64,000 bases of DNA from Candidatus Aenigmatarchaeota archaeon (GCA_016783545.1 JADHWJ010000001.1:10369-74368), one strand, 5' to 3'; positions 4,754 through 36,680 are shown, numbered from the stretch's first letter. The notes: generated by a model not told the origin, from the letters alone. Program-made: numbers and translations.

Positions 4754-4759
4754 GGATTA

Positions 4760-5086
4760 TTATTTGTTTTTCTTCAACTTAAGTATGGCTTCTGCAAGGT
4801 CGCCATTAGTTTCTTCTAACGCCTGCTTGGCTTCCTCTTCAGAGACACCGGTCTGTTCTGCAACTGTTTTCACATCTTCTTCTGGTACACCCGATTCCCT
4901 TTCAGAAATCTCACCTGTTATCTGGAAGCTTTCCTGTCCCATCATGTTAAGCCTTGCAACATTTGGATTTGATATTACTATCTCTTTTTCTGCAGTCTTA
5001 ATTATAACTTCCTCTGCCTCTATCTCCTCTGTCTGTAAGCCCATTTTCTTTGCCATTTTTTCTATTTGTTTAGGATTTAATTTCAT
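4760..5086 (-). CDS. nac: nascent polypeptide-associated complex protein (archaeal NAC alpha)
   Basis: 108 aa with an N-terminal NAC-domain core (MKKMGLQ...VIIKT...VISNPNV) and a C-terminal UBA-like helix (EEEAKQALEETNGDLAEAILKL). Confidence 0.75.
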   Translation of the reverse strand: MKLNPKQIEKMAKKMGLQTEEIEAEEVIIKTAEKEIVISNPNVARLNMMGQESFQITGEISERESGVPEEDVKTVAEQTGVSEEEAKQALEETNGDLAEAILKLKKNK

Positions 5087-5216
5087 AGATATTTTTTAGG
5101 GTTTAGGTTTATAAAACAAGAGCAGCTGGATATATATAAATTATTTATATATTTCACAAAATATATTTTCCTGTTAGGTCTGTCTATTTATTATTTTTTT
5201 TGTAAAAGATATTCGC

Positions 5217-10086: not shown

Positions 10087-10310
10087 GTTAGTGTTTTCAA
10101 GATCAGTTTGATATATTATTCTACCCCATTCATCTCTTCCATCATCTGGTTTTTCACAGAGTCGTAATCTTACTGGCTTTAGGAATTCAAAATCATCTGA
10201 CAGATTTAAAAGTACTCCATCTCCACCTAAAATTACTCAAATTTCTCTAATTAGACATTTCATATTACCATGTATTAATTTCCTGTCCTGGTATGAATTT
10301 CATTAAAAAT

Positions 10311-10356
10311 CTCCAGTGGAAGTCAAGGGGTGTTGATTTCTCCACCGGAAGTAAAG
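10311..10356 (+). repeat. pair of ORB-like (origin recognition box) elements
   Basis: CTCCAGTGGAAGTCAAGGGG (10311-10330) and TCTCCACCGGAAGTAAAG (10339-10356) resemble the archaeal ORB consensus: a TCCAGTGGAAA core followed by a G-string. Confidence 0.5.
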
Positions 10357-10551
10357 ATGTTCATATGAATAGTAAACCGATACCATGCAAAAGTCTCCTA
10401 AGGAAACAGAGGGGTATGAAGTAAATATTACTGTATTTTTTGTAATATTACAATTGTTCTAAATTCAATACAAAATCGACAGTATAAGAAATTTTATGAA
10501 GAATATTAACTTATTTTCCACTAGCAATGAAGGGGTGTTAAGTTCATGTGA

Positions 10552-13668: not shown

Positions 13669-14928
13669 TTATACCATCCCCAATTTATTTTTCTGAGCAT
13701 CTAAAAAGAGATTGTCTGTTAAAAGATAGTTCTCTTTTAAAATCTCCCTAATCTTCTTTAGGATATTTTTTTCAAGGAGAACTTTGATCTCTTTTGACCT
13801 TCCATACCTACCCCTTGATATAATTTTCGTGTTTATTATACTGAGCATATCAAGTTCTCCTATAAGGTCTGATACCCTTCTCTGTGTTAAGACCTTAAGA
13901 CCCTTACTAACACATATTTTTTCATATAAGCTGAAAACATCACCAGTCTGTATGTTTTTGGGGTCTTTTTCAAGGAGCTTTAATATTGCGGCGAGAACTG
14001 CTTGTGATTGCCTTGGTTGGGTTTTTACAATCTCAACTGTTTTATCAGTATCTAATTTATTTTCTGCCTTGTCGAGATGCTCAATATTTATTTTACTATT
14101 TTTTTCTCGTTCAGCAATCTCCCCTGATATTCTTAAAAGATTCAGCGCTTTCCTAGCATCTCCATGTTCCTGTGCTGCGAGTGCGGCGCATTTTGCAATA
14201 ACACCTTCAGCTAAAACACTATCATCAAAGGCAAGCTTGGCCCTTTGGTTTAATATATCTTGTAGCTGGGCAGCGTTGTAGGGTGGAAATATTATTTCCT
14301 CTTCAGAAAGACTGGATTTTACTCTTGGATCCAGATTATCTGTGAATGTTGTATCATTAGATATTCCAATTAAGGAGAGTTTGGTTTCCTTAAGCTCTTC
14401 ATTTATTCTCGTAAATCTATAGAGGATATCATCTCCTATCTTGCTTACCAATGCGTCTATTTCATCTAATATTAAAACAACAACAGATTTCTTTGAGTCC
14501 AGTGTCTCATAAAAGATTTTAAAAACCTCATCTGTTGGTAGTCCTGTATAAGGGATCTTTTTTCCCATTATTCTTAGTATCTCAGCAATCATCCTATACT
14601 CTGTATCAGAAACCTTCTTCAGCTTGCAATTTATATAAATAACTTTTACATTATCTGATATTTTAGAAAGTTCTTTTGTAACATGTTTTGCAACACAGCT
14701 TTTACCAGTACCAACTGTGCCGAAAATGAATGTGTTGCTTACTCTCTGGCCTTTAATACTTGGCGCGAGTATCTTTGCAAGCTGATCTACCTGTTCTTCC
14801 CTATGTGGAATATCGTCTGGTATATACCTATCAGTTAGAAAGTCCCTGTCTTTGAATATTATAATTGATTCAGAAGCATATTTAGTAAATAAATCTTTTA
14901 ATGTTTGTTGTGCCATAAACTCTCCCAT
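13669..14928 (-). CDS. orc1: Orc1/Cdc6 replication initiator (AAA+ ATPase with winged helix)
   Basis: Walker A GTVGTGKS and Walker B ILDEID are present, followed by sensor motifs and a C-terminal winged-helix region. Confidence 0.9.
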   Translation of the reverse strand: MGEFMAQQTLKDLFTKYASESIIIFKDRDFLTDRYIPDDIPHREEQVDQLAKILAPSIKGQRVSNTFIFGTVGTGKSCVAKHVTKELSKISDNVKVIYINCKLKKVSDTEYRMIAEILRIMGKKIPYTGLPTDEVFKIFYETLDSKKSVVVLILDEIDALVSKIGDDILYRFTRINEELKETKLSLIGISNDTTFTDNLDPRVKSSLSEEEIIFPPYNAAQLQDILNQRAKLAFDDSVLAEGVIAKCAALAAQEHGDARKALNLLRISGEIAEREKNSKINIEHLDKAENKLDTDKTVEIVKTQPRQSQAVLAAILKLLEKDPKNIQTGDVFSLYEKICVSKGLKVLTQRRVSDLIGELDMLSIINTKIISRGRYGRSKEIKVLLEKNILKKIREILKENYLLTDNLFLDAQKNKLGMV

Positions 14929-15194
14929 CTTCCAGTGGAAATATTAACAATTTTATTTTAGATCTAAATTTTATAAGCTAGATTTCCGCTGGAAAAATAA
15001 AACACTGTAATAAATTATAATTTTGGAGTGGAAATGGTTTTTCCCTTTATTTTTACTATACCCACACCCACCATTTCCTATGGAGATATAACATAATAAA
15101 ATATAAAATATATTTTATAACAATGTTATATTATAAATAAAAATTTTCGATTTTTATTAAAAGTATTTTCCATGAGAAATCAAGGTCTCGGGGG
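14929..15194. other. candidate replication origin (oriC): ORB-like repeats flanking an AT-rich duplex-unwinding element
   Basis: TCCAGTGGAAA (14931-14941, abutting the orc1 start codon), TTTCCGCTGGAAAAA (14984-14998), TTGGAGTGGAAATGG (15023-15037), TTTCCTATGGAGA (15074-15086) and TTTTCCATGAGAAAT (15176-15190) surround a roughly 85% AT tract at 15087-15170. Confidence 0.6.
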
Positions 15195-15920
15195 TTATTC
15201 TATTTTATTTATCCTTTCAATTAATTCTTCTAGTTTCTGATCTTTGGTGATGACTAGAGGAATACCTTCTGCTTCAGCAATTCTTTTTGCGATTTCATCA
15301 ACTTCCCCTATACCATGAAGAACAACTAAGGCTGGTTTTAGATTAGTTAGTTTAATGGCAACCATTGGCCCTCTTCCTGTAGAAAGTTTTGTAAATATTA
15401 ACGCTCTCTGGGTTGTAGAACCGTATACATTTATCAGTTCTGTTGAAGAAAACTCTGTTATTGCCTTTAAAGAGTCTATTACACTATACCCATAAATCAC
15501 ACCACTACCATTAACAATGGGTTTTGCGTTTATTTTTTTACAAAAATCATTCACATCTATACCAGACGCAAATTCTCTCATATCGATTATAGCGTCTGAT
15601 AAAAGCGGCTGTTCGGTTTTCTTCGAAAATGATTTTAATATCTCTCCACCCACCTTTTTATCTATACTGAGCAAAGCCTCTATATATCTCTTTATTATTT
15701 TTATTCCAGGACTCTTTCTTCTACCAGATTCATAGTCAGATATAACACTTGATGTTATACCTAGCTCTTCAGCAAGTTCTTTCTGGGAGATTTTGAATAT
15801 ATTCCTCCATTTCTTTAAAACACTATTTAAATTATCTGAAAGAACAACCTCCCCTACAATATCCTTTATCAGTCTTTCCCTTCCCAATACATCGTCAGAT
15901 AGCTTAATCATGTTCGACAC
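15195..15920 (-). CDS. HTH (XRE-type) transcriptional regulator with a C-terminal uncharacterised domain (COG1395-like)
   Basis: ISQKELAEELGITSSVISDYESGRR is a classic XRE helix-turn-helix. The 241-aa architecture matches a conserved archaeal regulator family. Confidence 0.6.
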   Translation of the reverse strand: MSNMIKLSDDVLGRERLIKDIVGEVVLSDNLNSVLKKWRNIFKISQKELAEELGITSSVISDYESGRRKSPGIKIIKRYIEALLSIDKKVGGEILKSFSKKTEQPLLSDAIIDMREFASGIDVNDFCKKINAKPIVNGSGVIYGYSVIDSLKAITEFSSTELINVYGSTTQRALIFTKLSTGRGPMVAIKLTNLKPALVVLHGIGEVDEIAKRIAEAEGIPLVITKDQKLEELIERINKIE

Positions 15921-15959
15921 CTAACTTATATTACTATAGAAAACTTTATAAATAGAGGC

Positions 15960-18900
15960 TTAGAGCCGCTTTTTATAGATACCTACTGAAAGGATTAGCA
16001 AAAGAATGATTGAAAATTCTTCTAAACCGGAAAACCCTGGTGGGAACCCAATATCTATTCTTACTTCACTTTCATCTTCAAATACCTCACCAGGAGGGAA
16101 CTCAAAAACATCAGATACAGCTATCATCTTCAATTTATAATCTTGGCCAGACTCCCTTGAAGGTATTTCAATGAAAAATCTTTTCCTTTCCCATGGCTGA
16201 AGCACAATATCTTCTATTACCCGTCCTTCTGATTCAACAAACTTTGCCAGGTCATAATCTTCCAAACTTAGGTCAATTGTTTGCGTTTCTCCGAGAAGCT
16301 CCCAAATAGTGACACCGAGTAGATATGTTTCTCCATTTCTGATTACAATATAATTTGAGTCAAATGCAGCCAATGGATGTGTTGTTATTGAATATTCTAT
16401 ATTATTATAATTCTCTGCCCTATCCATTAATTCCACATTTAATTTGACAAGACCTGTTTCATATAATATTTCTATTGGGCAGTTAACACTTCCTCCCCAA
16501 CTATCTCCAGAACCACAATCGTTCCAATCACCACCAGTAGTCCATTTCAAAACACTAACACCAGAGACAGAATCACTTGCATCAATATCCATCTTAACAT
16601 TACCAACATTTCCTGGTATTATTATCCAACCAACCACAGCCTTTATATTATCTATGAATGTTGCTGTATATTCTGGTGGAAGAACGTCTATTGTTGTTCC
16701 CATAAGCCTATTGATGCAATCAGGATCTGCCACATCATCTTCATCACAAACATCTTCAAGTAGTCCATCACTTTCAGAATAAAGACTGAACATAAAGGAG
16801 TAGCTGTCTGTATCACTACCCACCTCATCGTCTGAATCAAAAGTTAAAGATCCTTCAGTGCATTTATCTGGTGTGCATGTAAATTCACCTAAATTAAACC
16901 ACCTAGTCCAAGCAGTCTCTGGACCAGGTCTATTAGGGTTGGGGTTATACCTGTATTTAACAAAAAAGGAGTCCACTGGTGTTCCAGAACCGAATTGTAT
17001 TGGAAATGTAATTTTATTTATCCAATCTGGAAGTCTTGTGAAAAATGATGTCGGAGGGGTAATTACGATTCTTTTTTCCACTGAAACTAGAGGGCCGTCG
17101 TTTCCAACATTATCAAAGGGTTTGCATGTGAATATATATGTTCCTTCATCACCAGCCCAATTGCAAGAGAAATCACCGTTTCCATCCACATCAGCTGTCA
17201 ATATATATGTGAGGTCACCAGACCCATAATTACACATACTATATATATTCAATGGGGTGCCTCCCTCTTCTTTCAGACCAATCTCAAATTCCTTTATCCC
17301 AGATTCATCATCAGTTCCAGTTAGTGGTATAGTAAATGATGACGTAACAGGGGAGTCATCGCCCATTACACATGTTGGCGGGCCCAGGTCAGCGCCCACA
17401 GACTTTTCTTCTTCACCGGTATTTCCAGCCCGGTCAGTTCCTATTAGTTCGAATTTATATAGATAGTTGTTTTGAAGATTATCAAAAACTATTATTTCTC
17501 CAAGGCCAAATAATCCAGGAGTACCAAGTGTTGGTGTGCAGGGGTCTGTTGCTGGAGAACAGCTACCAGATTCTATTGAAATAGGAGTAATACCAAACCC
17601 AGAACCGCCCAGGTCAGAACCAGACCAACTCATGGTGAACGTATCAGCAACCCATGTAATCAGTCCCTCAACATAAAGAGCAGGGGTCACGATTAGAGAG
17701 AAGCTGGGTTCTTGGTTGTCAACCTTTACCTCATTGGTATTGGAAACAGTGACAACACCAAAGTCAGTGAAGATAATGTCAGCCTCAAATTTATAACATT
17801 TACCCGATTCCAGGCCTGTTACTCCAATAATCTCATCAAAAAGTGTTAGTAAGCCACCAACTTGGGTCCTTTCACTATAAGTTCCACACACACCATTAGC
17901 TAATGTCGCTGTCCTTTGGAAAATCTTGAAACCAGTTGAATCTTGATCACTCTTGGTTACAGTAATATCAAGAGTCGTATCCTGGGTAAATCCACCATCA
18001 TAAACTATTGACCCGGTTGCAGTGCCTATTGTTATTGATTTTGTCACCTCCTTTGAATTGTCTGCATTGTCCCATGTGATGGCTTTTATAATATAGCTTG
18101 ACTCTACTATAGTAACACCACAAACAGTCTCTGGAGGCTTTACCTCAACAACACCACTTTCTGGTAAATCACACCCATTATCATTATAATCAACAGTGCA
18201 TTCATCGGATTCATAAATACAGAATCTAGTTTTGTCAATGCCAGAAAGCCCGTCAGACGGTGTTATTTTTACATTAACAAAATCACTTCGAGTACATAGG
18301 TCATCATCACAACCAGTGCCTAAACAACACTCTGCTGCAATAGATGGGTCTGTTATATCTATCTTAACGCTTGTAAGAACAGAATTAGATTCACTTCCAC
18401 TAACATCATTTGCACCAAAATTAAGAAGATCTTCTTGTTCAGAAAGAGTGTTTGTATAATCATATTCATAGGTGCCTTTCATTGTCTTGGTATACCCAAG
18501 AGTTGGATCTGTTAGTTCAACACCATCAACCAGTGGCTCGCAGTCCCCTGAAGTTGCAATGCACATCTTTGTTGCTGCTATGTCATAAGCAGAGCTTACT
18601 GTGACTGTGATGTCCTGATCCTCATTAATCCACACATCATCGCTTCCATAATCCACTTCTAACACAACCCCTGCTGTTGAGACAGGGTCTGATGGGTTTC
18701 CTGCAACATCAATTGCCCTATACACCTTTTTCTTCCCTTCTGGAACAGTCTGGGTGTCATCACTGCAAGATGGATCTCCTTGATCTGGGGCTTCTTCATC
18801 ATTTATTAGGGGACAATTTATTGTTCCTTTCACCCCATCACATGTTCCAGCGCAGTTGCCGGCATCACTCACAGTACAATCGCTTAAAACATCTCCCTGG

Positions 18901-20810
18901 CACCATTTTATTTTCCTCATTCCAGATCCCCCAGCTTCATCGTGCGCTTCTATTTCAAATTCAACACCTGGGAGCACACTCTCTGGTGGTGTTATCACTG
19001 GTGCAATCTTATCTATCTGCACTATGACTGTGGCTGTCTCAAAGTTGTCAAAGCCGTCAGCCGCAGCAGAACAAATAATTACTTTGCTGCTAAGGTCATC
19101 TACTTTACCATCACTTTCATAGTATCCGGGGCTTGGGTATGGTTCTGAATAAGTAACTTTTTCAACATCTGTCCCGCTTAAGAAATCAGCCTTAGAGGGG
19201 CAGCTGACTTCCTTAAAACCAACATCTCTACAACCAACACCATTATCCGGGTCATCACATTTCACTTTAAAGTCTCTGTCAAGGTTGAACCATGGGGTTG
19301 TATCACCATCTTTATAGTTCTCTTTGGTCCCGTCACCATCCATGTCTATCTGGAGCTTGACATTTGGCTTTTCCCTTTCCAGTATTGTAAATTGCCCTTC
19401 AGCTTTGGGAGAACACTCGTGCCAGTAACTTCCCGGAGTATCTTCTGGTATCCTGTTGCAAGATTTCACTTCCCATTCATAATTACCGTATCCAAGCTCG
19501 TTTACATCGTATTTATGTTTGGCTTCATCGAAAACAGCTTCAGGGTCTGCTGGGTTTGGTGTAAAAATTCCTGGAACTATCACTTCCTTTATGTTTTTCA
19601 GGTAAAAATAATACGTGTCAACATAACTGCTATCACTAGCGCGCCACTGGAACTCAACATCCAGATTTCCAGTATCGTCTGTCACTTCCAGCTCGTTTGT
19701 TGGTGCTATTAAAGTTGGTAATTCAGGTACATAGTATTTGGTGATTTTTATCTTGAATGCCGGAGGACCGTAAGAGTCTAGGCCAAGTGAAATACCACCT
19801 GGGGTTTGACTATGCCCATAACTCCATGAAAAATAAAAATTAAAGTCAGTCCCGTCAGACGGGCTTGAAACGTATGGAAGTATTATAAAATATGAATCAA
19901 AATTATACTTCCCAAGGTCATTGGTGAGCCATAAGAAAGTTTTCCATGAAAACCAATCATCAAAATTGACTTGGCTTGGTTCATACTGGAGCCTGTATAT
20001 ATTATTTTCATTATGTGCAAAAGGAGCTGGGTCTGCCCTGAAAACAGTTGGATCTGCTTTCTTTGTGTTTATATTACTACCCCAGTCACTAAAAACTCCA
20101 TCATTGCAATAGTCCCTTCCCTTACACCAGCTTTTTGCTTGGTATTCAAAACCAACTATAGAACCAAGGATTTTATCTGTTGATATTTTAATCCTACATA
20201 ATCTACCTTCATGAATATAATCATGGTTTGCTTTGTTTACCCATTCACATACTTCACAATCATCAGTATCGCATACACAATATTTTTTACATCCATAATA
20301 AACGTCATCTCCACCATCACCTGTAACAGTTCCAGAATTAGCATTGCTTGGAACAAACTCAACCTCAACAGGAGTTGGAAGGTCAACCCATCCAGCATTT
20401 GCAATACCAGAGCTCAGAAGAAAGAAAAATAAAAAAAATATGGGAACATACCCTGCATTGTGATTTATAGCTCCACCCCTTCTGAGTTTTTTAGTAGCTA
20501 AGAAAATAACAAGAATAGCAATCAAAATAATCAATCCCCATAGAATGAATTCATTCCCTTCTACTGGTTCTTCAATTGTTCTGTTGGGTGCTCCAGATAC
20601 CTCTATCCTATTACCATTTTCATCAGCTATGAAATAGCGTTGGTTTTGCTCTATCTCTATACTATCTATTGGGACTTCACTAGAATTAGGAACACATGAA
20701 TCAAGTTCTTCCATATAGACGGTTCCAGTAGGGCAACTCAGCTCTTCAGCCTGAACAAAGACCATGAGCAAAAAAACCGTAAGCAAAAACGAAACTGTTA
20801 TAAATTTCAT
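15960..20810 (-). CDS. giant (1616 aa) Cys/Asp/Gly/Thr-rich cell-surface protein with a C-terminal TM anchor
   Basis: N-terminal signal peptide MKFITVSFLLTVFLLMVFVQA, then a second hydrophobic segment. Long beta-rich repeats follow, with many Cys pairs. The C-terminus FSIILLLILSVGIYKKRL is a TM anchor plus a basic tail. Confidence 0.6.
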   Translation of the reverse strand: MKFITVSFLLTVFLLMVFVQAEELSCPTGTVYMEELDSCVPNSSEVPIDSIEIEQNQRYFIADENGNRIEVSGAPNRTIEEPVEGNEFILWGLIILIAILVIFLATKKLRRGGAINHNAGYVPIFFLFFFLLSSGIANAGWVDLPTPVEVEFVPSNANSGTVTGDGGDDVYYGCKKYCVCDTDDCEVCEWVNKANHDYIHEGRLCRIKISTDKILGSIVGFEYQAKSWCKGRDYCNDGVFSDWGSNINTKKADPTVFRADPAPFAHNENNIYRLQYEPSQVNFDDWFSWKTFLWLTNDLGKYNFDSYFIILPYVSSPSDGTDFNFYFSWSYGHSQTPGGISLGLDSYGPPAFKIKITKYYVPELPTLIAPTNELEVTDDTGNLDVEFQWRASDSSYVDTYYFYLKNIKEVIVPGIFTPNPADPEAVFDEAKHKYDVNELGYGNYEWEVKSCNRIPEDTPGSYWHECSPKAEGQFTILEREKPNVKLQIDMDGDGTKENYKDGDTTPWFNLDRDFKVKCDDPDNGVGCRDVGFKEVSCPSKADFLSGTDVEKVTYSEPYPSPGYYESDGKVDDLSSKVIICSAAADGFDNFETATVIVQIDKIAPVITPPESVLPGVEFEIEAHDEAGGSGMRKIKWCQGDVLSDCTVSDAGNCAGTCDGVKGTINCPLINDEEAPDQGDPSCSDDTQTVPEGKKKVYRAIDVAGNPSDPVSTAGVVLEVDYGSDDVWINEDQDITVTVSSAYDIAATKMCIATSGDCEPLVDGVELTDPTLGYTKTMKGTYEYDYTNTLSEQEDLLNFGANDVSGSESNSVLTSVKIDITDPSIAAECCLGTGCDDDLCTRSDFVNVKITPSDGLSGIDKTRFCIYESDECTVDYNDNGCDLPESGVVEVKPPETVCGVTIVESSYIIKAITWDNADNSKEVTKSITIGTATGSIVYDGGFTQDTTLDITVTKSDQDSTGFKIFQRTATLANGVCGTYSERTQVGGLLTLFDEIIGVTGLESGKCYKFEADIIFTDFGVVTVSNTNEVKVDNQEPSFSLIVTPALYVEGLITWVADTFTMSWSGSDLGGSGFGITPISIESGSCSPATDPCTPTLGTPGLFGLGEIIVFDNLQNNYLYKFELIGTDRAGNTGEEEKSVGADLGPPTCVMGDDSPVTSSFTIPLTGTDDESGIKEFEIGLKEEGGTPLNIYSMCNYGSGDLTYILTADVDGNGDFSCNWAGDEGTYIFTCKPFDNVGNDGPLVSVEKRIVITPPTSFFTRLPDWINKITFPIQFGSGTPVDSFFVKYRYNPNPNRPGPETAWTRWFNLGEFTCTPDKCTEGSLTFDSDDEVGSDTDSYSFMFSLYSESDGLLEDVCDEDDVADPDCINRLMGTTIDVLPPEYTATFIDNIKAVVGWIIIPGNVGNVKMDIDASDSVSGVSVLKWTTGGDWNDCGSGDSWGGSVNCPIEILYETGLVKLNVELMDRAENYNNIEYSITTHPLAAFDSNYIVIRNGETYLLGVTIWELLGETQTIDLSLEDYDLAKFVESEGRVIEDIVLQPWERKRFFIEIPSRESGQDYKLKMIAVSDVFEFPPGEVFEDESEVRIDIGFPPGFSGLEEFSIILLLILSVGIYKKRL

Positions 20811-20888
20811 GTATTATATTTATTCTATTATTGTTAAATAAATCAATTAATTTTTATAAAGTGAATACCATCCAGTCTACTGAACCAA

Positions 20889-21549
20889 TGACTGGTGGTG
20901 GGTATGGGCTTAGTCCATACTATTAGTTCTCAATAAACAAAAAATAAAATGGGGAGTGAAACCTACCCCATTAATTAACAGACTTAATTACTTGTAGGTT
21001 TCGCTTTCTTATAAATCTTTGAGGTGGAAATATGTCAGAGTTTGTTAGAGGTAGCTCCAGCATTTTCAGGCTGGAGGCTCACATATCTTTTAAGGTCAAA
21101 TACTGTCATGATGTATTTGATATTATAGAATTCAAGGAAAGGTGCACTGAGCTGCTGCTGGAAGCAGCAGCTGGTATTGGTATTGAAGTAACAGAACTTG
21201 GCTACGATAGGAATCATGTACATTTAGATATTCGTTGGATGAGGATATGCCTGAGCGTTGACCAAATTTCAAAAAAGCTCAAGGGAACCACTGGAAGGAA
21301 ACTACTAAAAGAGTTTCCTGGTATCAAGAAAAGGTTCTTCTGGGGTTCAGGTCTATGGTCACCTGTTATATACGGTGACTCACTTGGCAAAGACCCAATT
21401 AATATGCATAACTATGTGGCTAACCAAGGAAAGAAAAGCAGCAAGTATACAACTACCTTGGTGAGGTTCTTTAACCAATAATACCACCGGTCTATAGTGA
21501 GCTCACTGATTTAACAGAGGCGAACGGTGACCGGTGGTTGAACCAATGT
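20889..21549 (+). mobile_element. IS200/IS605-family insertion sequence (IS200-type, tnpA only)
   Basis: The tnpA ORF is flanked by a stem-loop GTATGG-GCTTAGT-CCATAC at 20909-20927 and the perfect palindrome AGTGAGCTCACT at 21497-21508. A direct repeat GAACCAATG lies at both boundaries (20890-20898 and 21541-21549). Local GC is higher than the surroundings. Confidence 0.6.
21032..21481 (+). CDS. tnpA: IS200-like Y1 (HUH) transposase TnpA
   Basis: 149 aa with the HUH motif DRNHVHLDI and a C-terminal FWGSGLWSPVIYGDSLG...YVANQ, typical of IS200 TnpA. Confidence 0.8.
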   Translation: MSEFVRGSSSIFRLEAHISFKVKYCHDVFDIIEFKERCTELLLEAAAGIGIEVTELGYDRNHVHLDIRWMRICLSVDQISKKLKGTTGRKLLKEFPGIKKRFFWGSGLWSPVIYGDSLGKDPINMHNYVANQGKKSSKYTTTLVRFFNQ

Positions 21550-21579
21550 TTATAAGCATACATTGATTAATATATAATT

Positions 21580-23229
21580 ATGCAATATTGGGGAGTTTTA
21601 TTAGTCTTTTCTGCATTTTTTATAGCGCTTTCTATTCCAATATATGCCTTTGAGACCTGTTCTGTCAATGTTAAAAGCAAGTATAATCTTCAGCCGCTTG
21701 AAGGAATGCAAGCTGCTATACACGAAGAAAAACTCTTGGGGGCCAACCCATACTGTACCATAATAAATACTGATATGAGTGGCGATGCATCAATTTCCGT
21801 GCCTTGGTCTGTTTCAGGTGATTGCGATTCTGATAAGTGCACAAAATATGAAGCCGTGGCTTATTATCATGGCGAATATGAGACAAAGTCCTTTTCTTCT
21901 GCAGGGAAACTTTATTTCAAAGTGCCTGCTGGAAATATAGATGTTGAAGTCAGGCTTGTTGATAATGCTGGGAATATTGTAACCAGTGGAATAACATCGG
22001 TTTATTTAGGATATGGTGATGGCACTGTTAAGAACACACTCGATGCACAACCACCAACTCAAGGGATTCTTAATACAGTTGTTTATATACCACAGCCAAT
22101 GGGAACTCCGGTAGGTATACACCCAAACCCACAATTTCATTGCCAGGCAGGCATTGGGGACGGCTGTTTTAGGGATATATACACAATGGCAGAGTTGGAT
22201 GATGGGAGTTTCACAAACTGGGAAAAGCTAAGCAGGGTCAATTGGCAAACAATAAACGCTAAGCTATATAAGGAGATAGAGGTAGCCCAAGGAGGCACTG
22301 TTAGTTGCACTGGTGGAACAGGTGAGATAGAAATAGATCTGAAGAGCATAAGAGGGAACAACATAGCTTCTGAAGGTTATAGTTTTAGAATGGTTTGTAA
22401 GTATAAGAGCGGTTTTTTTGGGCAAACTCAGACAGAAGAGCTCAGCCCGGTTTCAGGTACCAGCAGATTTACTGGATTAAAAACAAATTCGGATTTTGAA
22501 TACAGCTATGAAGTTATGTATGGTGCCACTTCAAAGCAGAGAAACAGCGACCTGTCAACAGTGATTGGTAAGGGCAATGCTGGGAGTTTTCCAACAGGCC
22601 AAGACAAAATGAGTCATGAGTATATAGTGAAACCTGATTGTAAGATGTATTGCATTGAAAAGGATCAGGGTACAATTGAGGGCTTGGTTGCCTATATCAT
22701 TGATCCTTTAAGCGAATTAGGTCTTATTGATAAAATTTTAGGCTCGATCATCAATGCCATTACATTTGGACTGACACCAGGTCCGCAGCCAATTAATATA
22801 ATAACTGATATTCTCGGAAACATTGCACATATTGTTGATGCTGTCACATTTGGAAATTTTGGATCAAAGAATTGCAAGCCATTGGAAGACCTTACAGAGG
22901 CTCAAACCGTTGATTATCTAACTACTATCAGGGATACTGTGCTAAAGGATGATGCTGCGCTGACATATTGTTCAATAGAGATTGATGTTAAAGAGGAAAG
23001 TTATGATAAGGAAAATAATGAAGGGAAATATAAGATAGAAATGAACTCAGAGCCAAGGACAGACGACCTGATGAGGGCGATATTCTATTGCCATTTATTG
23101 GGATGCTTTGATTCTGGTGATAGTGAAAGTGGGAGAAAAAATGATGTAGTGCCCGGTAAATGCACACCACCAACTTGTGAATGTCCCCCAGATTCACCAA
23201 ATGAATGTGCGATAAGATGTTGCACTTAA
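21580..23229 (+). CDS. secreted Cys-rich protein (Sec signal peptide)
   Basis: Signal peptide MQYWGVLLVFSAFFIALSIPIYA. The tail is Cys-rich: GKCTPPTCECPPDSPNECAIRCCT. Confidence 0.5.
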   Translation: MQYWGVLLVFSAFFIALSIPIYAFETCSVNVKSKYNLQPLEGMQAAIHEEKLLGANPYCTIINTDMSGDASISVPWSVSGDCDSDKCTKYEAVAYYHGEYETKSFSSAGKLYFKVPAGNIDVEVRLVDNAGNIVTSGITSVYLGYGDGTVKNTLDAQPPTQGILNTVVYIPQPMGTPVGIHPNPQFHCQAGIGDGCFRDIYTMAELDDGSFTNWEKLSRVNWQTINAKLYKEIEVAQGGTVSCTGGTGEIEIDLKSIRGNNIASEGYSFRMVCKYKSGFFGQTQTEELSPVSGTSRFTGLKTNSDFEYSYEVMYGATSKQRNSDLSTVIGKGNAGSFPTGQDKMSHEYIVKPDCKMYCIEKDQGTIEGLVAYIIDPLSELGLIDKILGSIINAITFGLTPGPQPINIITDILGNIAHIVDAVTFGNFGSKNCKPLEDLTEAQTVDYLTTIRDTVLKDDAALTYCSIEIDVKEESYDKENNEGKYKIEMNSEPRTDDLMRAIFYCHLLGCFDSGDSESGRKNDVVPGKCTPPTCECPPDSPNECAIRCCT

Positions 23230-23231
23230 CT

Positions 23232-26200
23232 ATGAACAAAAAAATTAAAGCCCAAGTGGAAATATTGACAATAGTTTTAGTAGCTGCAGGAATAATTGTA
23301 GCTGTAGTGTATGGTGGGACAATGGAAGAGCCGAAAGGAAAATTTGTAGAATCAGCTATAATATCCCTCCAAAATACAATGTGTACAGACCCTGCTAATG
23401 CATATTCATTCTCTGGTGGTGTTAGAACCACATGTACATGTTATCTTGCTTTTCAGCCATACGCAACTTCGTTTTCCACTGCCTATCCTGTTGATGTTGA
23501 ATATCTGGGCCTTGTATGGGAGGGCGCTGAAGGATTCTGTTATGGGCTTCAAATAATACCAGAAGGTGCTGAGCCTGGAATAATGCCACCCGGTGGCGGA
23601 GTAACTCCCCCATCAGGTGAATGCCCTGGTTATGATTGTTCCCCTCATGATGCAAGCAGAGTTAGTAAAAAATTCACTGTTAGCTATAACATCCATCCTA
23701 ATAAAGACAAGAATAATATATTTGGTAATTTGATGGCTAAAGTGAGAATATTGGATGAAAATAGCCCTCCTAATGAAATAGAAATCCTCGATGATGCTGA
23801 TGTTAGTATTGACATACCCAGTAGCTGCAATGCTGTTGGTTCATTAGACTGCAAAGTGGAAGTTTATGTTGATAATCCAGATCCATCGCATATGAAAGAT
23901 GGATATGCTTGGATGTTTTATTTGGGCCAGGCAGCTAAAATTGCTAAAACAGATTGTGATAGTAGCGGAGCATGTGATGGAATAGACTGGGCCGATGGCG
24001 ACGATGTTGATATAGTGGGATTTGAATTTCCAACTTCTACGTTGCCGGTGTTCCCCTTTGGCATGCAGCCAGGAACATTTGAGAGAGCTTTTGATGGTGT
24101 TGAAATCAGAGATTTATGCCTTGAATGGCCTGTTACTGACGGTGAAAGGCTGGAACCAATAACCATTGGTCCCTATTCTGATCCAGTATGTAATTGTAAA
24201 AATCCAGGAGATGGTCCTTATGAGGGATTCCAGAAAGAAGAGAGTGGTAGTGCTCAATGCGTTGAAATTGTTGACACCGGATATGTTAGATTTGAAGACT
24301 ATAACGATGTGGAAACATACGTGTTTTCAAGGGGGGAGAACATGTTCTGCACTGCCCGTATAGACACTTTTAATGATATTGAACCTGTTAATCCAAAAAT
24401 AGAAATTTTAATGGTTAAGGAAGGAGATATTGACAACCCTTTGACAAAAAGCGGCGAAGATGGTAATCCAACCTGTAATTTTAATGAGGACTGTGTAATA
24501 GGATATGATACCCTTGGGATAACAGATTTCAGTTCAGGTCCTGTTAACATTGAGTGTTATGTGAAATACAGCTTTGATGCATGGAATTCCAGGGAATATA
24601 AGAGCATGCCTGAAATGATGTTCCTTAATGGTCCAACCGCTGTTCATCATGTCCCACTGCCCAGTGCGCAGGTTTTCCCATGCCCTGATAAAACCTTAGC
24701 ACAACCTTATCCTAATCCAGAAATACCCGAACTTGGAGAGGAATATTGTGTGTGTGTGGAGAGTGTAACAGTTCCTGATGGAACGTTAGATTTAGATGGT
24801 ACATACGGGCCTGATATGAAGTGTCATATATTACCAATACTCCCAAGTACTATTTTTTATGACGAAGATGGGAATAAAAGGGGAAAAGTCCCGAAAGGCG
24901 ATGTAAGTGTTATAGTGGAGGGAGAAAAATACAAAGACAGTGATGATGTGATTGCCAGGGGATATTTTTATGGCAGGTACGTTTCAGATGATACTGTTAC
25001 ACCACCTGTTGACTGTGAAACAACAATCAATATTAAAAGAATACGTACCGACGCTTCCGGAGCTGAGCAAACAGAGGATTTTGAAGGTACTGATAACTGC
25101 TGCGATGCTAATGAAATATGCGAATTAACTTTCCTTGACGCTGAAACAGAACCATTTGACAAATTTGAGGCCTACATGGCATACAAATTCAAGGTTTGGG
25201 ACGGTGTTAATGAGATTCCAATAACAGGGTACATAGAAGGCGACACTTTAGCCATGGGAATAGGTGACACGTCAGAGGCAGAAGTTGCTCCCTGTCCGGA
25301 TGGATTTGAAACATCTATATATACAGATGCTGTTGGTATTGGTTATAACATATGCATTTGTGGTGATCAGAACGAAGGCTTTACAAGACCAAAGATAGGT
25401 GACGATGATGGTGTTTGCGTCAAGTCAGATATTGAAAATATGAGGTATGGAGATCTTTACACAGAAGAAATCATAGGATTTATGCCTGCTGGTGGTAACT
25501 ATTACACATCTGAAATTCAACCAAAATGTATAGCAGATATTGAAATTGAGAACGGGGAGATAGACAGTGATACTATTGTAGAAGTGAAAGGATTTTTGGA
25601 AGCGGTTGAATATGGGGATGATACTGTAGTGCAGGATTATACTCAAATGTGTGATATTTCACAAGCTGAATGCACTGTTAGTCTTTCTCCACAATCTAAA
25701 TTTCTGTATACAAAATGCAAGTTTAATGAGGATATTTTAACTTGGAGTGGAAAAGCAGACATAACAATTAGAAAACCTATTCAATTTCAACAAATCCAAC
25801 CAGAAGAAAGTATAATGATTATACCGGTTGGTTATATTAAGGGAACTATAAAAGGATGTAGAGATGTTAAAGGAGTTAGAACATGCGCAGAATTGGAAGA
25901 TGTTGAAATAAAATTAATTAGCAGCCAGGTAAATCCACATAAGGTGTGTAATGAATTCCCATGTAATGAAATAGCTGGCGTAACCGATGCAAACGGAAAC
26001 TTTGATATCGGGCCGATATATTCCCAATTTGATGATACTGATAAATTCCTTTTCAGGTTGATGGTTAACTCAGGTGGCATGGAATATTTCTGGGACGGTA
26101 ACCAAATAATGAATGATACTATCTGGGAGACGTTTAATATCCCTTTGAATAGTTATAAAGATTTTGGTGTTTTGGAAATTGAAATGCCTCCGTGCAAAAA

Positions 26201-26558
26201 ACTGCAGGAGATCGGAGAAGGTAAGGATAAAATGGAAGATTTAATTGATGAATTCAATAGTTGCTTGAATAACAATGCATGTAAAATGTTCTGCCAGCCT
26301 AGTTTAAACATAAAAGACGAATATAAAATGAATCTTGGGTCATTAACAACTGTTGTTGATTCAGTCCTGGACGCTCCAATAGTATTATATCAGAGACTTT
26401 TGCTGGGAGTGGTTGACAAGGTAAGATTGATAACTTTCAATAAAGTACCGGTTGTTTCAGCACTCAAAAGTTATATTAATTTATTCACACCCTATCTTAT
26501 TTGGCATGGGGATTTTGAGCTTATTGAAAGAAATAAGAGTTGGTGGCAGATATGGTAG
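23232..26558 (+). CDS. large (about 1100 aa) surface protein with a pilin-like class III signal peptide
   Basis: MNKKIKA|QVEILTIVLVAAGIIVAVV has a basic n-region, then K-A, then Q and E, then a 20-aa hydrophobic stretch, matching archaeal prepilin-peptidase substrates. The body is Cys/Asp/Gly-rich. Confidence 0.5.
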   Translation: MNKKIKAQVEILTIVLVAAGIIVAVVYGGTMEEPKGKFVESAIISLQNTMCTDPANAYSFSGGVRTTCTCYLAFQPYATSFSTAYPVDVEYLGLVWEGAEGFCYGLQIIPEGAEPGIMPPGGGVTPPSGECPGYDCSPHDASRVSKKFTVSYNIHPNKDKNNIFGNLMAKVRILDENSPPNEIEILDDADVSIDIPSSCNAVGSLDCKVEVYVDNPDPSHMKDGYAWMFYLGQAAKIAKTDCDSSGACDGIDWADGDDVDIVGFEFPTSTLPVFPFGMQPGTFERAFDGVEIRDLCLEWPVTDGERLEPITIGPYSDPVCNCKNPGDGPYEGFQKEESGSAQCVEIVDTGYVRFEDYNDVETYVFSRGENMFCTARIDTFNDIEPVNPKIEILMVKEGDIDNPLTKSGEDGNPTCNFNEDCVIGYDTLGITDFSSGPVNIECYVKYSFDAWNSREYKSMPEMMFLNGPTAVHHVPLPSAQVFPCPDKTLAQPYPNPEIPELGEEYCVCVESVTVPDGTLDLDGTYGPDMKCHILPILPSTIFYDEDGNKRGKVPKGDVSVIVEGEKYKDSDDVIARGYFYGRYVSDDTVTPPVDCETTINIKRIRTDASGAEQTEDFEGTDNCCDANEICELTFLDAETEPFDKFEAYMAYKFKVWDGVNEIPITGYIEGDTLAMGIGDTSEAEVAPCPDGFETSIYTDAVGIGYNICICGDQNEGFTRPKIGDDDGVCVKSDIENMRYGDLYTEEIIGFMPAGGNYYTSEIQPKCIADIEIENGEIDSDTIVEVKGFLEAVEYGDDTVVQDYTQMCDISQAECTVSLSPQSKFLYTKCKFNEDILTWSGKADITIRKPIQFQQIQPEESIMIIPVGYIKGTIKGCRDVKGVRTCAELEDVEIKLISSQVNPHKVCNEFPCNEIAGVTDANGNFDIGPIYSQFDDTDKFLFRLMVNSGGMEYFWDGNQIMNDTIWETFNIPLNSYKDFGVLEIEMPPCKKLQEIGEGKDKMEDLIDEFNSCLNNNACKMFCQPSLNIKDEYKMNLGSLTTVVDSVLDAPIVLYQRLLLGVVDKVRLITFNKVPVVSALKSYINLFTPYLIWHGDFELIERNKSWWQIW

Positions 26559-28534
26559 TCTATAAAAAAGCAAACAAGAAAGGAAATATATTTCTTTTAG
26601 TGTTTACTGTAACTATATTATTATCATTTCAAGCAGTATTTGCGCAGCCAGATCTTTGGGTTTATATAACCATAGAAGAAAACCCGGTAAATGCCAGCAT
26701 TAACATACCAATATACATAGCTAATATGGGAAACGAAACAGCAGAAAGTGTAACTTTGAGAATAGAAGACTTTAGTATTATTTCAGAAGAAACCCTTATC
26801 ACAGTCCAAGATATAGTTCCAATAGAACCTGGTGTGGTTGAACTGCTAAACTATGAAGTGAATGAAAGCGGAAAGCATATGATATCAATAATTGCAGACA
26901 CAACAGATGAAAAGTCTGCTATAGACAATTGGCTTCTTCTCTTCCCGACAAAAATCATTGAAGGAAAAGATCTTAGGGTGGAGCTTTCAGATCTTGATGA
27001 AGAGTATGTTGAAGACAGTATAGCTGGAGTTAGGGTTTGGCTGGTAAATATTGGCAACCAGGATTTGAGTAATGTAGTGGCGGACCTGTCAATTACAAAT
27101 AATGACACAACAGAATCCATATGGAATGCGACAGTAGATATTATTCAAAGCGGTTCATATGATGAGCTTGTTAGATGGATACCATCAGGTGGAGAGAGTA
27201 CAATCACTTTAACTGCAACTGTTGATGGTGATGTTAACCTTACAAACAATGTGGATGTAATAGGGGCTTCTACAACTGCTTTGATGGGTGTGAATTTTAC
27301 CTTAACAGACAATGAAGGAAATGGTATAAACCAAACCGTGGAGTTTGAAGACCATTATAGGATTAATAACGAAGAAAATGTTCTGATATTGGTGCCAAAC
27401 AAAACACAAAAAATAATATCTGAGACAAAGGTTGGTTCAGAAATCAATGAAATAAAGTTCCTTGGTTCAAATCCAAGCGAAATGATGGAACTTGTTTTTG
27501 AAAAAAACAATGGCAAGTCATTTGCCGGTAAATATTTCTATCAGATTTATTCATTCAGGCCAAGCTGGGATTATTTAGGTATGGAGATTGTATTTAATTC
27601 TTATCAAAGAGCAAAAAAAGATGAATTCTCAATATATGCATGCTCTGAATGGGATTGGGCAGGAAAGGACTGCAATAGCCAATGGGAAGAGCTGGAAACT
27701 TTGCAGGGTTCCATAAAGGGTGTGGTTGATGATGCAGAAGCTGTTGCTCTGCTGGGCCCTAATTGTGGTAATGGGATATGCGATTCAGGGGAAAGCAGTG
27801 CCAATTGTAGAGAGGACTGTCCACCAGCTATAACAGGGGGACCAGGTAGCTCACCAGGAACAAGTCCTGGGACAGGACCAGGACTTCCAAGCCAGCAACA
27901 AAAAAGCAAATCAGTGACAATCTCAGGTATAGGTGAGGTATCGCTTAATATAACAGCAAGGACAGTTGGTGAAGTAACTATAGAACAGAGAGAAGCGCCT
28001 GCAGTTCAGCCATCTGGAGTTGTTTATACCTATCTGAACATAGATCCAAACGCAGTAAATGTTGTATCAGCAGAGATAAGATTCCAGGTAAGCAAAGAAT
28101 GGATATCAGACAACGAAATAAACAGCAATATGATTAATCTCTTGGAATTCAAAGACAACAAATGGATTGCTCTGGATACTACGCAGACAGGCCAAACAGA
28201 TAGTTATTTGGAATACAAAGCAACTGTAGAAGGGTTTTCAATATTTGCAATATCGGGTGAAAAGATTGCTAATGTATGTGAAGAAGGAAAACTTTGCACA
28301 GAATTCAAGCTGATGAAATGCGAAAACAATGAATGGGAAATAGAAAAGGCATGCATATACGGATGCAACAATGAAACACTCGATTGTAATCCATTACCAA
28401 AAGAAAAACTGACACAGAAACTGCCTAAAATAATAGAGGATTATTCTCTCTATATAATCATAATAATTATAATTGCGGCTGCACTTGGGATAGCTGTGTT
28501 AAAATTTGGATTCTTTGGAAAGAAGAGAAGATAA
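26540..28534 (+). CDS. cell-surface protein with Sec signal, Pro/Gly/Ser linker and C-terminal TM anchor
   Basis: Signal peptide ...FLLVFTVTILLSFQAVFA|Q. It contains a CGNGICDSGESSANCREDC module, a PGSSPGTSPGTGPGLP linker, and the C-terminus IIIIIIIAAALGIAVLKFGFFGKKRR. The start may instead be the ATG at 26552. Confidence 0.5.
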   Translation: MVADMVVYKKANKKGNIFLLVFTVTILLSFQAVFAQPDLWVYITIEENPVNASINIPIYIANMGNETAESVTLRIEDFSIISEETLITVQDIVPIEPGVVELLNYEVNESGKHMISIIADTTDEKSAIDNWLLLFPTKIIEGKDLRVELSDLDEEYVEDSIAGVRVWLVNIGNQDLSNVVADLSITNNDTTESIWNATVDIIQSGSYDELVRWIPSGGESTITLTATVDGDVNLTNNVDVIGASTTALMGVNFTLTDNEGNGINQTVEFEDHYRINNEENVLILVPNKTQKIISETKVGSEINEIKFLGSNPSEMMELVFEKNNGKSFAGKYFYQIYSFRPSWDYLGMEIVFNSYQRAKKDEFSIYACSEWDWAGKDCNSQWEELETLQGSIKGVVDDAEAVALLGPNCGNGICDSGESSANCREDCPPAITGGPGSSPGTSPGTGPGLPSQQQKSKSVTISGIGEVSLNITARTVGEVTIEQREAPAVQPSGVVYTYLNIDPNAVNVVSAEIRFQVSKEWISDNEINSNMINLLEFKDNKWIALDTTQTGQTDSYLEYKATVEGFSIFAISGEKIANVCEEGKLCTEFKLMKCENNEWEIEKACIYGCNNETLDCNPLPKEKLTQKLPKIIEDYSLYIIIIIIIAAALGIAVLKFGFFGKKRR

Positions 28535-28559: not shown

Positions 28560-28922
28560 ATGAGCATAAGAAAAGGCATATTCTATGAAAGAGAACTTCT
28601 CCACTATCTGAATGATAGAGGGTTTTCAGTATGCAGGATACCTTCATCAGGAAATTATATCACACCGGTTGATATAATAGCAATGAAAAATGGAAATGTT
28701 GTATGTTTTGAATGCAAGGCATGGTCAAAGAAGCCAAGGTTGAGCAAACCAAAGCGTGAGATGATGGTTAACTGGTGCAATCGAGCAGGTGCAAGAAGTT
28801 TCCTTGCGTGGAGAACAAGAGGTAAATGGTTGTTTCTCAGAATGGAAGATGTGGAAAGAGGAAATTATGCGGATGAAAACTGGCTTGAGATGGAAAATTT
28901 ATTAAGTTTATTGACAGTCTAA
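28560..28922 (+). CDS. hjc: Holliday junction resolvase Hjc-like (PD-(D/E)xK nuclease)
   Basis: 120 aa. GIFYERELLHYLNDRGFSVCRIPSSG then VDIIAMKNGNVVCFECK places the E, D and E-x-K catalytic residues in the Hjc arrangement. Confidence 0.65.
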   Translation: MSIRKGIFYERELLHYLNDRGFSVCRIPSSGNYITPVDIIAMKNGNVVCFECKAWSKKPRLSKPKREMMVNWCNRAGARSFLAWRTRGKWLFLRMEDVERGNYADENWLEMENLLSLLTV

Positions 28923-35825: not shown

Positions 35826-36680
35826 ATGAAGTATATCATTTTATGCTTATTATTAATAGTGCTTGTTTCTGGATGTATATATCCAATAACAGGTCAGTCC
35901 ATAAATAAAGAAAAAATAAGAGAAGAGCTAAAAGGTGTTATGGAAAAAATGAATAATACAATTCCTGATAAAGAAGAAAAGATTCCAGAAGAACCGAAAA
36001 ATGCGACTGAAGTTCAGGTAGAAGAAACACTCAAATGTCCTATCTGCAACGATGATAATTCTTGCACAAACGATTATTGTAGTGAGACAACTAATTTTGA
36101 ATGTGTTTATGAAGAGATATCATGCCAGAATACAATAGCAACCTGCCCAGACGGGTTTGAGATGACATGTGAAAACATCTGCATGGACGGTGTGTGTACA
36201 ATATGCATACCCGATTGCATTGGTCATAGAACACCACAGACAGAAGAACCGTGTATTGAATCATGGTCTTGTTCTGATTGGTCTGAATGCACAAACGGAA
36301 CCAAAAATAGAGAGTGCTCTGAAAATAACTGCGAAACAGAAGAAAACAGACCAGAAGAATTTCAGACATGTGTAGAACAGCCTAGAATAAATTATATAGA
36401 ATCTGGAAAGGGTAGAGAAAAATTAGACGAATGGATTGAATTAATTGGTCATGGTGTGGACTTGACCAATTGGACAATAGCAGATGCAGCTAATCATAGA
36501 TTCACATTCCCTAGTATTGAAATAACAGAAAATCTAAAAGTTCACACAGGTCCAGGTGAAAACAATTCAACTGATCTTTTCTGGGGATATGGAAGTCCTA
36601 TATGGAACAATAATGGTGATAATGCAACATTAAAGGATAGCAATGGTAATGTCGTAGACATCTACACATATTCAGAATAG
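35826..36680 (+). CDS. lipoprotein-type secreted Cys-rich protein with a C-terminal lamin-tail domain (LTD)
   Basis: LVSGC is a lipobox-like signal. There are several Cys clusters (CPICNDDNSC, WSCSDWSEC). The C-terminus EWIELIGHGVDLTNWTIADAANHRFTFP...TLKDSNGNVVD matches the LTD fold signature. Confidence 0.55.
   Translation: MKYIILCLLLIVLVSGCIYPITGQSINKEKIREELKGVMEKMNNTIPDKEEKIPEEPKNATEVQVEETLKCPICNDDNSCTNDYCSETTNFECVYEEISCQNTIATCPDGFEMTCENICMDGVCTICIPDCIGHRTPQTEEPCIESWSCSDWSECTNGTKNRECSENNCETEENRPEEFQTCVEQPRINYIESGKGREKLDEWIELIGHGVDLTNWTIADAANHRFTFPSIEITENLKVHTGPGENNSTDLFWGYGSPIWNNNGDNATLKDSNGNVVDIYTYSE

Follow-up and report, generated by a model that had tools for sequence, protein, structure and literature searches.

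How DPANN archaea recognize and hold their partner cells is largely unknown, and orphan, fast-evolving envelope proteins are the candidates for this role. A cluster of genes for such proteins was found in a metagenome-assembled genome assigned to Candidatus Aenigmarchaeota (DPANN) by NCBI record names, in line with the initial annotation, which had been made from the sequence alone and supposed a small-genome archaeon. The stretch analyzed, hereafter the window, comprised 64,000 nt (GCA_016783545.1, JADHWJ010000001.1:10369–74368). By calling of open reading frames (ORFs), a 12.6-kb block (15960–28534) of four exported-protein ORFs (A, B, C, and D) and one transposase gene, tnpA, was delimited in it; family models and ORF calling agreed with the initial placement of all five genes. 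What are these proteins, and how did they come to stand together? In our opinion, A–D rather probably represent a lineage-specific cluster of envelope-tethered, disulfide-stabilized, fast-turnover proteins of a binding type, a function predicted from the sequence features described below. The locus is real but typical of such organisms.

The block is flanked by a gene of a helix-turn-helix (HTH) regulator on the left and by hjc, encoding a Holliday-junction resolvase, on the right. The neighborhoods of these genes were collected by encoding-contig look-ups and by scanning GTDB with an HTH alignment, and were analyzed by tblastn and ORF calling. The HTH protein is 58–75% identical across Aenigmarchaeota. 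In at least 14 related genomes (empty-site loci L005–L011, L013, L015–L018, L036, and L087), hjc directly neighbors the HTH gene in divergent orientation, at a distance of 41–434 bp versus 12.6 kb in the window, which, judging by gene order, marks the region as a true lineage-specific island. The initial description of an “island” in a plastic region was supported by this adjacency, as well as by a LAGLIDADG gene in the same spacer elsewhere: in locus L089 of another Aenigmarchaeota lineage (4352–5227; HTH 63% identical), a free-standing gene of a 291-aa LAGLIDADG_3 protein occupies the hjc/HTH spacer, the site of the island here. Locus L087 (HTH 67% identical) lacks the island; the closest relative, L004 (Logan SRR26701722; HTH 75% identical), is the sole one with an ortholog of gene A. 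The island occupies the site of the short divergent hjc/HTH spacer of related species, about 0.8 kb from a predicted replication origin; it would have been gained after the split from the relative with the 67% identical HTH protein, at least gene A being present before the split from the relative with the 75% identical one. The HTH gene has its own TATA box (TTTATAAA, 15946–15953) in the 39-bp gap after A, and a TATA-like AATATATA precedes hjc in the 25-bp gap after D.

Gene A, together with its ortholog, indicates which parts of these proteins are kept. According to hydropathy and the positions of cysteines, protein A consists of a signal peptide (aa 1–21), a 66-aa ectodomain segment with 2 Cys, two transmembrane (TM) segments (aa 88–106 and 119–140), a Cys-rich ectodomain of ~1450 aa, and a C-terminal anchor. 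The ortholog (L004:3–4172, at least 1389 aa) is located directly upstream of the HTH gene, and the L004 contig stops within it. Proteins A of the window and L004 are 29% identical over ~1400 aa (E 8e-98); of the flanking proteins, HTH is 75%, Cdc6 80%, and a 308-aa protein 59% identical. Cysteine was the best conserved residue in the A/L004 alignment (69% kept vs. 30% overall). The last 30 aa of A were 67% identical to the ortholog, with the PPGFSGLEEFS motif invariant and the following helix and basic residues essentially invariant. Since the cysteines and the tail are kept while the rest of A diverges, the alignment bears the signature of a disulfide scaffold and a conserved sorting/anchor signal on a rapidly changing ectodomain. 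We consider the tail a candidate signal of PGF-CTERM-like type for sorting and anchoring. Among the C-termini encoded by 86 fetched loci, PPGFSGLEEFS was present in A and its ortholog only; three unrelated PGF/PEF-type tails were encoded in the non-Aenigmarchaeota loci L056 and L066.

A motif scan revealed five units of putative immunoglobulin (Ig)-like type in the ectodomain of A, each consisting of DxxSG[IVMF] and a DxAGN-like motif 50–76 aa further on (SG motifs begin at aa 625, 853, 1066, 1167, and 1413); such motif pairs recur in the L004 ortholog. Further relatives of A were not found: word-indexed protein searches with A alone and with the A+L004 alignment returned A itself only, metagenome scans with the A/L004 alignment gave nothing, and the back-translated PPGFSGLEEF motif gave 0 matches in them. 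Sequence searches of PDB with A, D, and a five-repeat profile of the Ig-like units of A yielded nothing meaningful, and segment-wise Pfam scans at E ≤ 10 yielded nothing beyond sub-threshold beta-sandwich matches.

Genes B, C, and D are located on the same strand, divergently from A, and abut or overlap; because of this arrangement they look like one co-directional operon, as had been proposed. Export segments were detected in all four proteins, in agreement with their initial assignment to secreted or surface proteins. Protein B begins with a Sec-type signal peptide and contains 20 Cys; its C-terminal tail is Cys-rich, and a TM segment, a membrane anchor, and a basic tail are all lacking. Protein C (N-terminus MNKKIKAQVEILTIVLVAAGIIVAVV) contains 42 Cys and begins with MNKKIKAQVEIL followed by a hydrophobic stretch, its only such segment; a C-terminal anchor is absent. 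This N-terminus may be either a signal-anchor or a class-III (prepilin-like) signal. In-frame ATG codons further upstream would extend C to 1113 or 1117 aa. An exhaustive phmmer search with C against 1.84 billion representative proteins returned C itself only. Four four-Cys modules were recognized in C, starting at aa 51, 296, 484, and 688; the pattern, defined post hoc, was expected 0.07 times, and four occurrences were reached in 0 of 5000 shuffles.

Protein D starts with a signal peptide, followed by a pair of CARDB-like domains and a CGNGICD..C..DC mini-module; after a Pro/Gly linker come, in order, the PGF-pre-PGF domain, a segment with 6 Cys, a TM segment, and KKRR. The PGF-pre-PGF domain (TIGR04213, aa 480–573) scored 84.9 bits vs. 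the cutoff of 28 (E 5.5e-24), and D is named a “PGF-pre-PGF domain-containing protein” by NCBI. Thus, the statement that none of the proteins resembles a characterized family held for B and C, failed for D, and partly failed for A with its weak Ig-like signals. Anchoring by TM segments or basic tails, likewise proposed, was found in A and D; B has no such anchor, and C has the N-terminal hydrophobic segment only. Paralogy among A–D was not detectable in Smith–Waterman comparisons with shuffles among eight secreted proteins of the window, the sole exception being the Cys mini-module of D (CGNGICD...C..DC), which is common to a 1103-aa protein encoded at 43303–46614 (z = 4.3). A signature of a diversity-generating retroelement was not found either: the island has no repeats of at least 30 nt, and Pfam/NCBIfam scans revealed no reverse transcriptase domain in its proteins.

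Cysteine content was 2.85% (46 residues) in A, 3.64% (20) in B, 3.79% (42) in C, and 1.81% (12) in D, with a mean of 1.52% in 36 other ORFs of the window; the Cys-rich character initially ascribed to all four therefore applies to A, B, and C and not to D. Each of the four proteins has an even number of Cys, and A is enriched in Asp, Gly, and Thr. The GC content of the island is 0.39 vs. 0.34–0.35 in the flanks, the excess being confined to codon positions 1 and 2; GC content at third codon positions (GC3) is 0.29–0.33 in A–D against a background of 0.276 ± 0.049, and only tnpA deviates (0.413). Because the excess lies in positions 1 and 2 and GC3 is native, the raised GC reflects amino acid composition and not foreign origin; a foreign-DNA reading was rejected on the same grounds. 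The island is not a recent foreign import.

The four proteins also differ in potential N-glycosylation sites (sequons). Numbers of N-x-S/T were compared with those in composition-preserving shuffles. Sequons were depleted in A (2 observed vs. 11.7 expected, P = 0.0003), B (0 vs. 4.0, P = 0.01), and C (2 vs. 6.0, P = 0.046), which argues against A–C being the glycosylated surface layer (S-layer). In 25 cytoplasmic-type proteins the number was at expectation (48 vs. 44.6); D had 11 vs. 6.8, and the L004 ortholog of A was not depleted (19 vs. 16.6). Enrichment was found in an Asn/Thr-rich 979-aa protein encoded elsewhere in the window (61058–63997, minus strand; 74 vs. 28.5), which has a C-terminal TM segment and a long basic tail; its ORF starts 3 nt from the end of the window, and the N-terminus is perhaps truncated. 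It is likely a heavily glycosylated protein of S-layer type. A 589-aa protein (46611–48380) avoids sequons likewise.

Table. Features of the island and its immediate flanks (positions counted from the first letter of the window).
Feature	Position	Strand	Description
HTH regulator gene (left flank)	15195–15920	−	238 aa (ATG at 15911); conserved archaeal
Gene A	15960–20810	−	1616 aa; NCBI ISS36_00165, “hypothetical protein”; matches the NCBI protein exactly
C-terminal tripartite tail of A	15963–16043	−	PPGFSGLEEFS, hydrophobic helix, YKKRL
Five Ig-like-type units of A	16371–19043	−	aa ~590–1480; located by motif scan, putative fold
Left half of A/B spacer	20811–20888		GC 0.205; TATA-like TTTATTTAA ~27 nt upstream of the A ATG on the minus strand; promoter predicted from sequence
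IS200-group element	20889–21549	+	~0.66 kb; tnpA only; apparently no terminal inverted repeats
tnpA	21032–21481	+	149 aa, Y1 (HUH) transposase; NCBI MBL7205994.1, “IS200/IS605 family transposase”
Right remnant of A/B spacer	21549–21579	+	TATA box TTTATAA at 21549–21555, ~27 nt before the B ATG
Gene B	21580–23229	+	549 aa; ISS36_00175; NCBI “hypothetical protein”
Gene C	23232–26558	+	1108 aa; ISS36_00180; NCBI “hypothetical protein”
Four four-Cys modules of C	23382–25418	+	C-x(15-25)-C-x-C-x(17-33)-C
Gene D	26540 (TTG) or 26552 (ATG) to 28534	+	664 or 660 aa; MBL7205997.1
CARDB-like domains of D	26645–26911 and 26969–27232	+	PF07705
PGF-pre-PGF domain of D	27977–28258	+	TIGR04213
hjc (right flank)	28560–28922	+	Holliday-junction resolvase; Hjc 2.4e-20

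The transposase gene was identified by Pfam Y1_Tnp (PF01797; 64 bits vs. the cutoff of 23, 1.8e-17), NCBIfam transpos_IS200 (NF033573; 62.9 bits vs. the cutoff of 55, 3.2e-17), and a PHROG transposase model (5e-19); TnpA is 31–33% identical to bacterial IS200/IS605 transposases. The HUH (H62-V-H64) and Y128-x3-Q132 motifs are intact, and by these characters the product is a bona fide Y1 transposase of the IS200 group. The initially proposed borders of the insertion sequence (IS) are plausible and right within ~2 nt, as indicated by two copies of the 10-mer TGAACCAATG (20881–20890 in the left flank and 21539–21548 at the right end) and by a hairpin at the right end. This hairpin (21483–21538) is strong (z = −3.4); the 7-bp hairpin at the left end (20902–20920) is weak and not significant (z = −1.15). 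A second copy of either end was absent from the 64-kb window.

The element was initially thought to interrupt the island; in fact, it is intergenic, situated in the divergent A/B spacer 78 bp from the A ATG and 31 bp from the B ATG, and no gene is broken. The spacer would measure 108 bp if the IS were removed, and the element sits between the TATA-like boxes of its two sides. The position of the predicted box TTTATAA ~27 nt before the B ATG would imply a leaderless transcript of B. A higher GC content had also been ascribed to the IS: its total GC (0.401) equals that of the neighboring island genes (0.375–0.40), and only the GC3 of tnpA stands out.

Three metagenome contigs of the same near-clonal population, 99.5–100% identical, carry an identical tnpA, always in the same context. 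The differences among them consist of one single-nucleotide polymorphism (SNP) in C, two SNPs outside the island, and a change in the number of 9-nt repeats at the IS end. Over 3.9 kb, contig L001 differs from the window only by G>T at 24363 (D378Y in C) and by the copy number of the 9-mer CTGAACCAA, which is present once at the left IS junction of the window (20880–20888) and in three tandem copies in L001 (266–304). Two apparent protein variants, P0124 and P0128, proved to be only alternative start calls. The strain-level comparison suggested in the initial annotation thus did not show variability of the locus.

The surroundings of the island deserve description as well. Repeats of the origin recognition box (ORB) type (TTCCAGTGGAAA and variants, in both orientations) are located at 14927–15180, between orc1/cdc6 (13669–14928) and the HTH gene, and a second ORB-type cluster is located at 10310–10526; ORB clusters upstream of cdc6 were also found in L004, L005, and L008. 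The cluster beside orc1/cdc6 is probably the replication origin (oriC), ~0.8 kb from the island. In L005 (11703–18219), a 520-kb JGI contig, an insert of ~7 kb with genes of a DDE transposase and of AAA/nSTAND3-like and SMC_N-like proteins lies between the HTH/metallophosphatase genes and cdc6; it is another origin-proximal variable segment, possibly related to defense. Locus L013 (QNAP01000273.1; 2.9 kb), a contig assigned to a “Thermotogae bacterium” bin, encodes an archaeal Hjc and an HTH protein of Aenigmarchaeota type (60% identical), and is probably mis-binned.

Elsewhere in the window, a second overlapping pair of genes for Cys-rich exported proteins was found on the minus strand (43303–48380). 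The 589-aa protein of this pair has an N-terminal hydrophobic anchor; the 1103-aa protein contains 5.1% Cys and four CG[ND]GxCE...CCxDCGC repeats, with DNA repeats at 44781, 45300, and 45747. Pfam, NCBIfam, and PHROG gave no matches for either protein; the pair follows a size pattern like that of B/C, and homology to B/C was undetectable. A 284-aa protein encoded on the plus strand (35826–36680) begins with a lipobox-like sequence (LVSGC), consists of Cys to 7%, and ends in a Lamin Tail Domain (Pfam LTD, 2.4e-12).

According to the explanation we favor, A and B–C–D would form two divergent transcription units with exported products: A, B, and D would cross the membrane by means of Sec-type signal peptides and C by means of a signal-anchor or a prepilin-like signal. 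Proteins A and D would be tethered by C-terminal TM segments and basic tails, A in addition by the conserved PGF-type motif. The ectodomains would be chains of small modules, mostly beta and stabilized by disulfides, with five Ig-like units for A, the four four-Cys modules for C, and two CARDB-like domains plus PGF-pre-PGF for D. Displayed on the envelope, A–D may act as binding proteins that establish contact with partner cells, host cells, or surfaces; D could serve as a glycosylated membrane-anchored stalk, and B and C as its unglycosylated distal partners. Under very rapid sequence turnover, nothing but the disulfide scaffold and the signal for anchoring would be kept. The IS200-group element would have been inserted later into the 108-bp A/B promoter spacer, breaking no gene, and become fixed in the sampled population. 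Hypothetical cell-surface proteins were reported to be the fastest-diversifying class in Nanoarchaeota (PMC6142677), and surface structures are thought to mediate DPANN–host contact in Aenigmarchaeota (PMC8407114); the reading of A–D as fast-changing binding-type proteins fits both the former pattern and the latter presumed role.

Several results weigh against this explanation. No significant match of A–D to any adhesin family was obtained. The Ig-like signals of A in Pfam/NCBIfam scans and in segment-wise Pfam scans at E ≤ 10 were all sub-threshold (OmpL47-type barrel, 1.2e-7; Big_13, 0.06; DUF7743, 7e-4), and the CARDB-like matches of D, near full length, reached 19.3 and 17.6 bits, below the threshold of 22.7. 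The PGF-CTERM hidden Markov model (HMM; TIGR04126) gave 0 matches with the C-termini of A, its L004 ortholog, and D even at E ≤ 10. Relatives of B were absent from Pfam, NCBIfam, PHROG, the 86 loci, and viral contigs, B not having been run through the large protein search. The N-terminus of C was not recognized by the class III signal model of Pfam (PF04021) or by any NCBIfam model. AlphaFold2 single-sequence models of B and C were unusable, with a predicted local distance difference test (pLDDT) score of 34 and 31, respectively. The idea of a B–C–D complex is an inference drawn purely from the operon structure.

Could the island be a cell-wall locus, with A, possibly together with D, as a structural S-layer or envelope glycoprotein? 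The plan of A resembles that of the Haloferax S-layer glycoprotein, with a signal peptide, an Ig-like chain, a PGF motif, a TM segment, and a basic tail; moreover, the tail of A is conserved, and D carries PGF-pre-PGF, a domain characteristic of envelope proteins in archaea. However, the two N-terminal TM segments of A are extra to this plan, the locus is missing from at least 14 related species with an empty hjc/HTH spacer, and A–C are depleted in sequons, most strongly A (P = 0.0003). The 979-aa protein, with 74 sequons vs. 28.5, a C-terminal TM segment, and a basic tail, is a better candidate for such a role. An S-layer function of the locus is thus unlikely in our opinion. Clear homology of the island proteins to ordinary S-layer or housekeeping proteins with conserved synteny, which would have refuted the initial annotation, was not found. 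Archaeal prepilin signals consist of a [KR][GA][Q..] motif and a hydrophobic stretch, and the start of C (MNKKIKA, then QVEILTIVLVAAGIIVAVV) fits this scheme by eye; C has no other anchor. Type IV pili and FlaI/FlaJ homologs were reported in Aenigmarchaeota (PMC8407114), in favor of C, perhaps with the whole B–C–D operon, belonging to a type IV pilus-like or “bindosome”-type system, in which the class III signal of C would be cleaved by a prepilin peptidase and C mounted on a fiber. Against this, Pfam Class_IIIsignal and NCBIfam models missed the N-terminus; prepilin peptidase, PilB/FlaI, and PilC/FlaJ were not identified in the examined parts of the window and the island; and C with its 1108 aa is far above typical pilin size, while an uncleaved signal-anchor explains the same sequence. 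Such a system is therefore hardly probable.

The remaining possibility is that a mobile element (the IS, an integrative element, or a provirus) brought the island in as cargo, or that the island was acquired by recent horizontal transfer. The block was inserted between conserved genes, the GC3 of its transposase gene deviates, and the same hjc/HTH spacer holds a gene of homing-endonuclease type in another lineage. Nevertheless, IS200-group elements carry tnpA only, and the 0.66-kb IS is located within the promoter spacer of the island, not at its borders; an integrase, a tRNA gene, and flanking direct repeats were not found around the island. GC3 of A–D is indistinguishable from that of the host, and the ortholog of A at the same position in L004 indicates vertical inheritance since before that split. 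PHROG and viral-contig matches were nil except for tnpA. A provirus origin was rejected, as PHROGs matched tnpA alone and B and D had no match in viral contigs. All in all, we regard cargo as highly improbable.

The favored explanation, a cluster of envelope-tethered binding-type proteins, leaves current views unchanged. The locus is a cleanly delimited case, with a defined ancestral empty site and one ortholog showing that the cysteines and the C-terminal tail are kept, and it offers an internal contrast: A–C avoid sequons, in contrast to the sequon-rich D and 979-aa protein. These properties make it a reasonable target for structural and binding work. Comparable islands are to be expected in most DPANN and candidate phyla radiation (CPR) genomes. 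More far-reaching, and in our view doubtful, is the proposal that A, B, and C are the first members of new families, private to this lineage, of recognition proteins that are disulfide-knotted and unglycosylated; together with glycosylated D, they would form a host-attachment apparatus setting partner specificity. According to it, the PPGFSGLEEFS tail would represent a sorting signal of archaeosortase type in a variant not yet described for DPANN, and recent selection for glycan-free binding faces would underlie the sequon avoidance, which the ortholog does not show.

Regarding known systems, the IS corresponds to the IS200 group of the IS200/IS605 family in its 149-aa Y1 HUH TnpA and length of ~0.66 kb, and probably also in an apparent lack of terminal inverted repeats and in the strong sub-terminal hairpin at the right end. 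It departs from the norm of the family by the low identity of TnpA to bacterial ones (31–33%), a single copy in 64 kb, the weak left hairpin, and a 9-nt junction unit varying between 1 and 3 copies. Two CARDB-like matches in D and the DxxSG...DxAGN pairs in A, all below cutoffs, resemble beta-sandwich domains of the CARDB and bacterial Ig-like (Big_13, OmpL47-type) kinds, and D resembles PGF-pre-PGF proteins by a domain scoring above the curated cutoff of TIGR04213. With archaeosortase A substrates, such as the S-layer glycoprotein of Haloferax volcanii, A shares a multi-Ig-like ectodomain and a PGF motif followed by a hydrophobic helix and a basic cluster. Unlike in PGF-CTERM substrates, seven inserted residues (SGLEEFS) separate PGF from the helix in the tail of A, and the HMM misses this tail; D has no PGF before its TM segment; unlike S-layer glycoproteins, A is poor in sequons. 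No archaeosortase was detected among the scanned proteins of the window.

Nanohaloarchaeal SPEARE proteins are giant surface proteins of DPANN archaea with protease or nuclease domains. From these, as well as from the surface proteins of Nanoarchaeota, A–D differ in lacking sequence homology and protease or nuclease domains, in being Cys-rich and, in the case of A–C, sequon-poor, and in having a defined insertion site next to the putative oriC. At the same time, A–D resemble the “hypothetical external” proteins of Nanoarchaeota (PMC6142677): they are encoded by a small-genome archaeon, are large, exported, and lineage-restricted or orphan, evolve far faster than neighboring core genes, and are presumed to take part in host contact.

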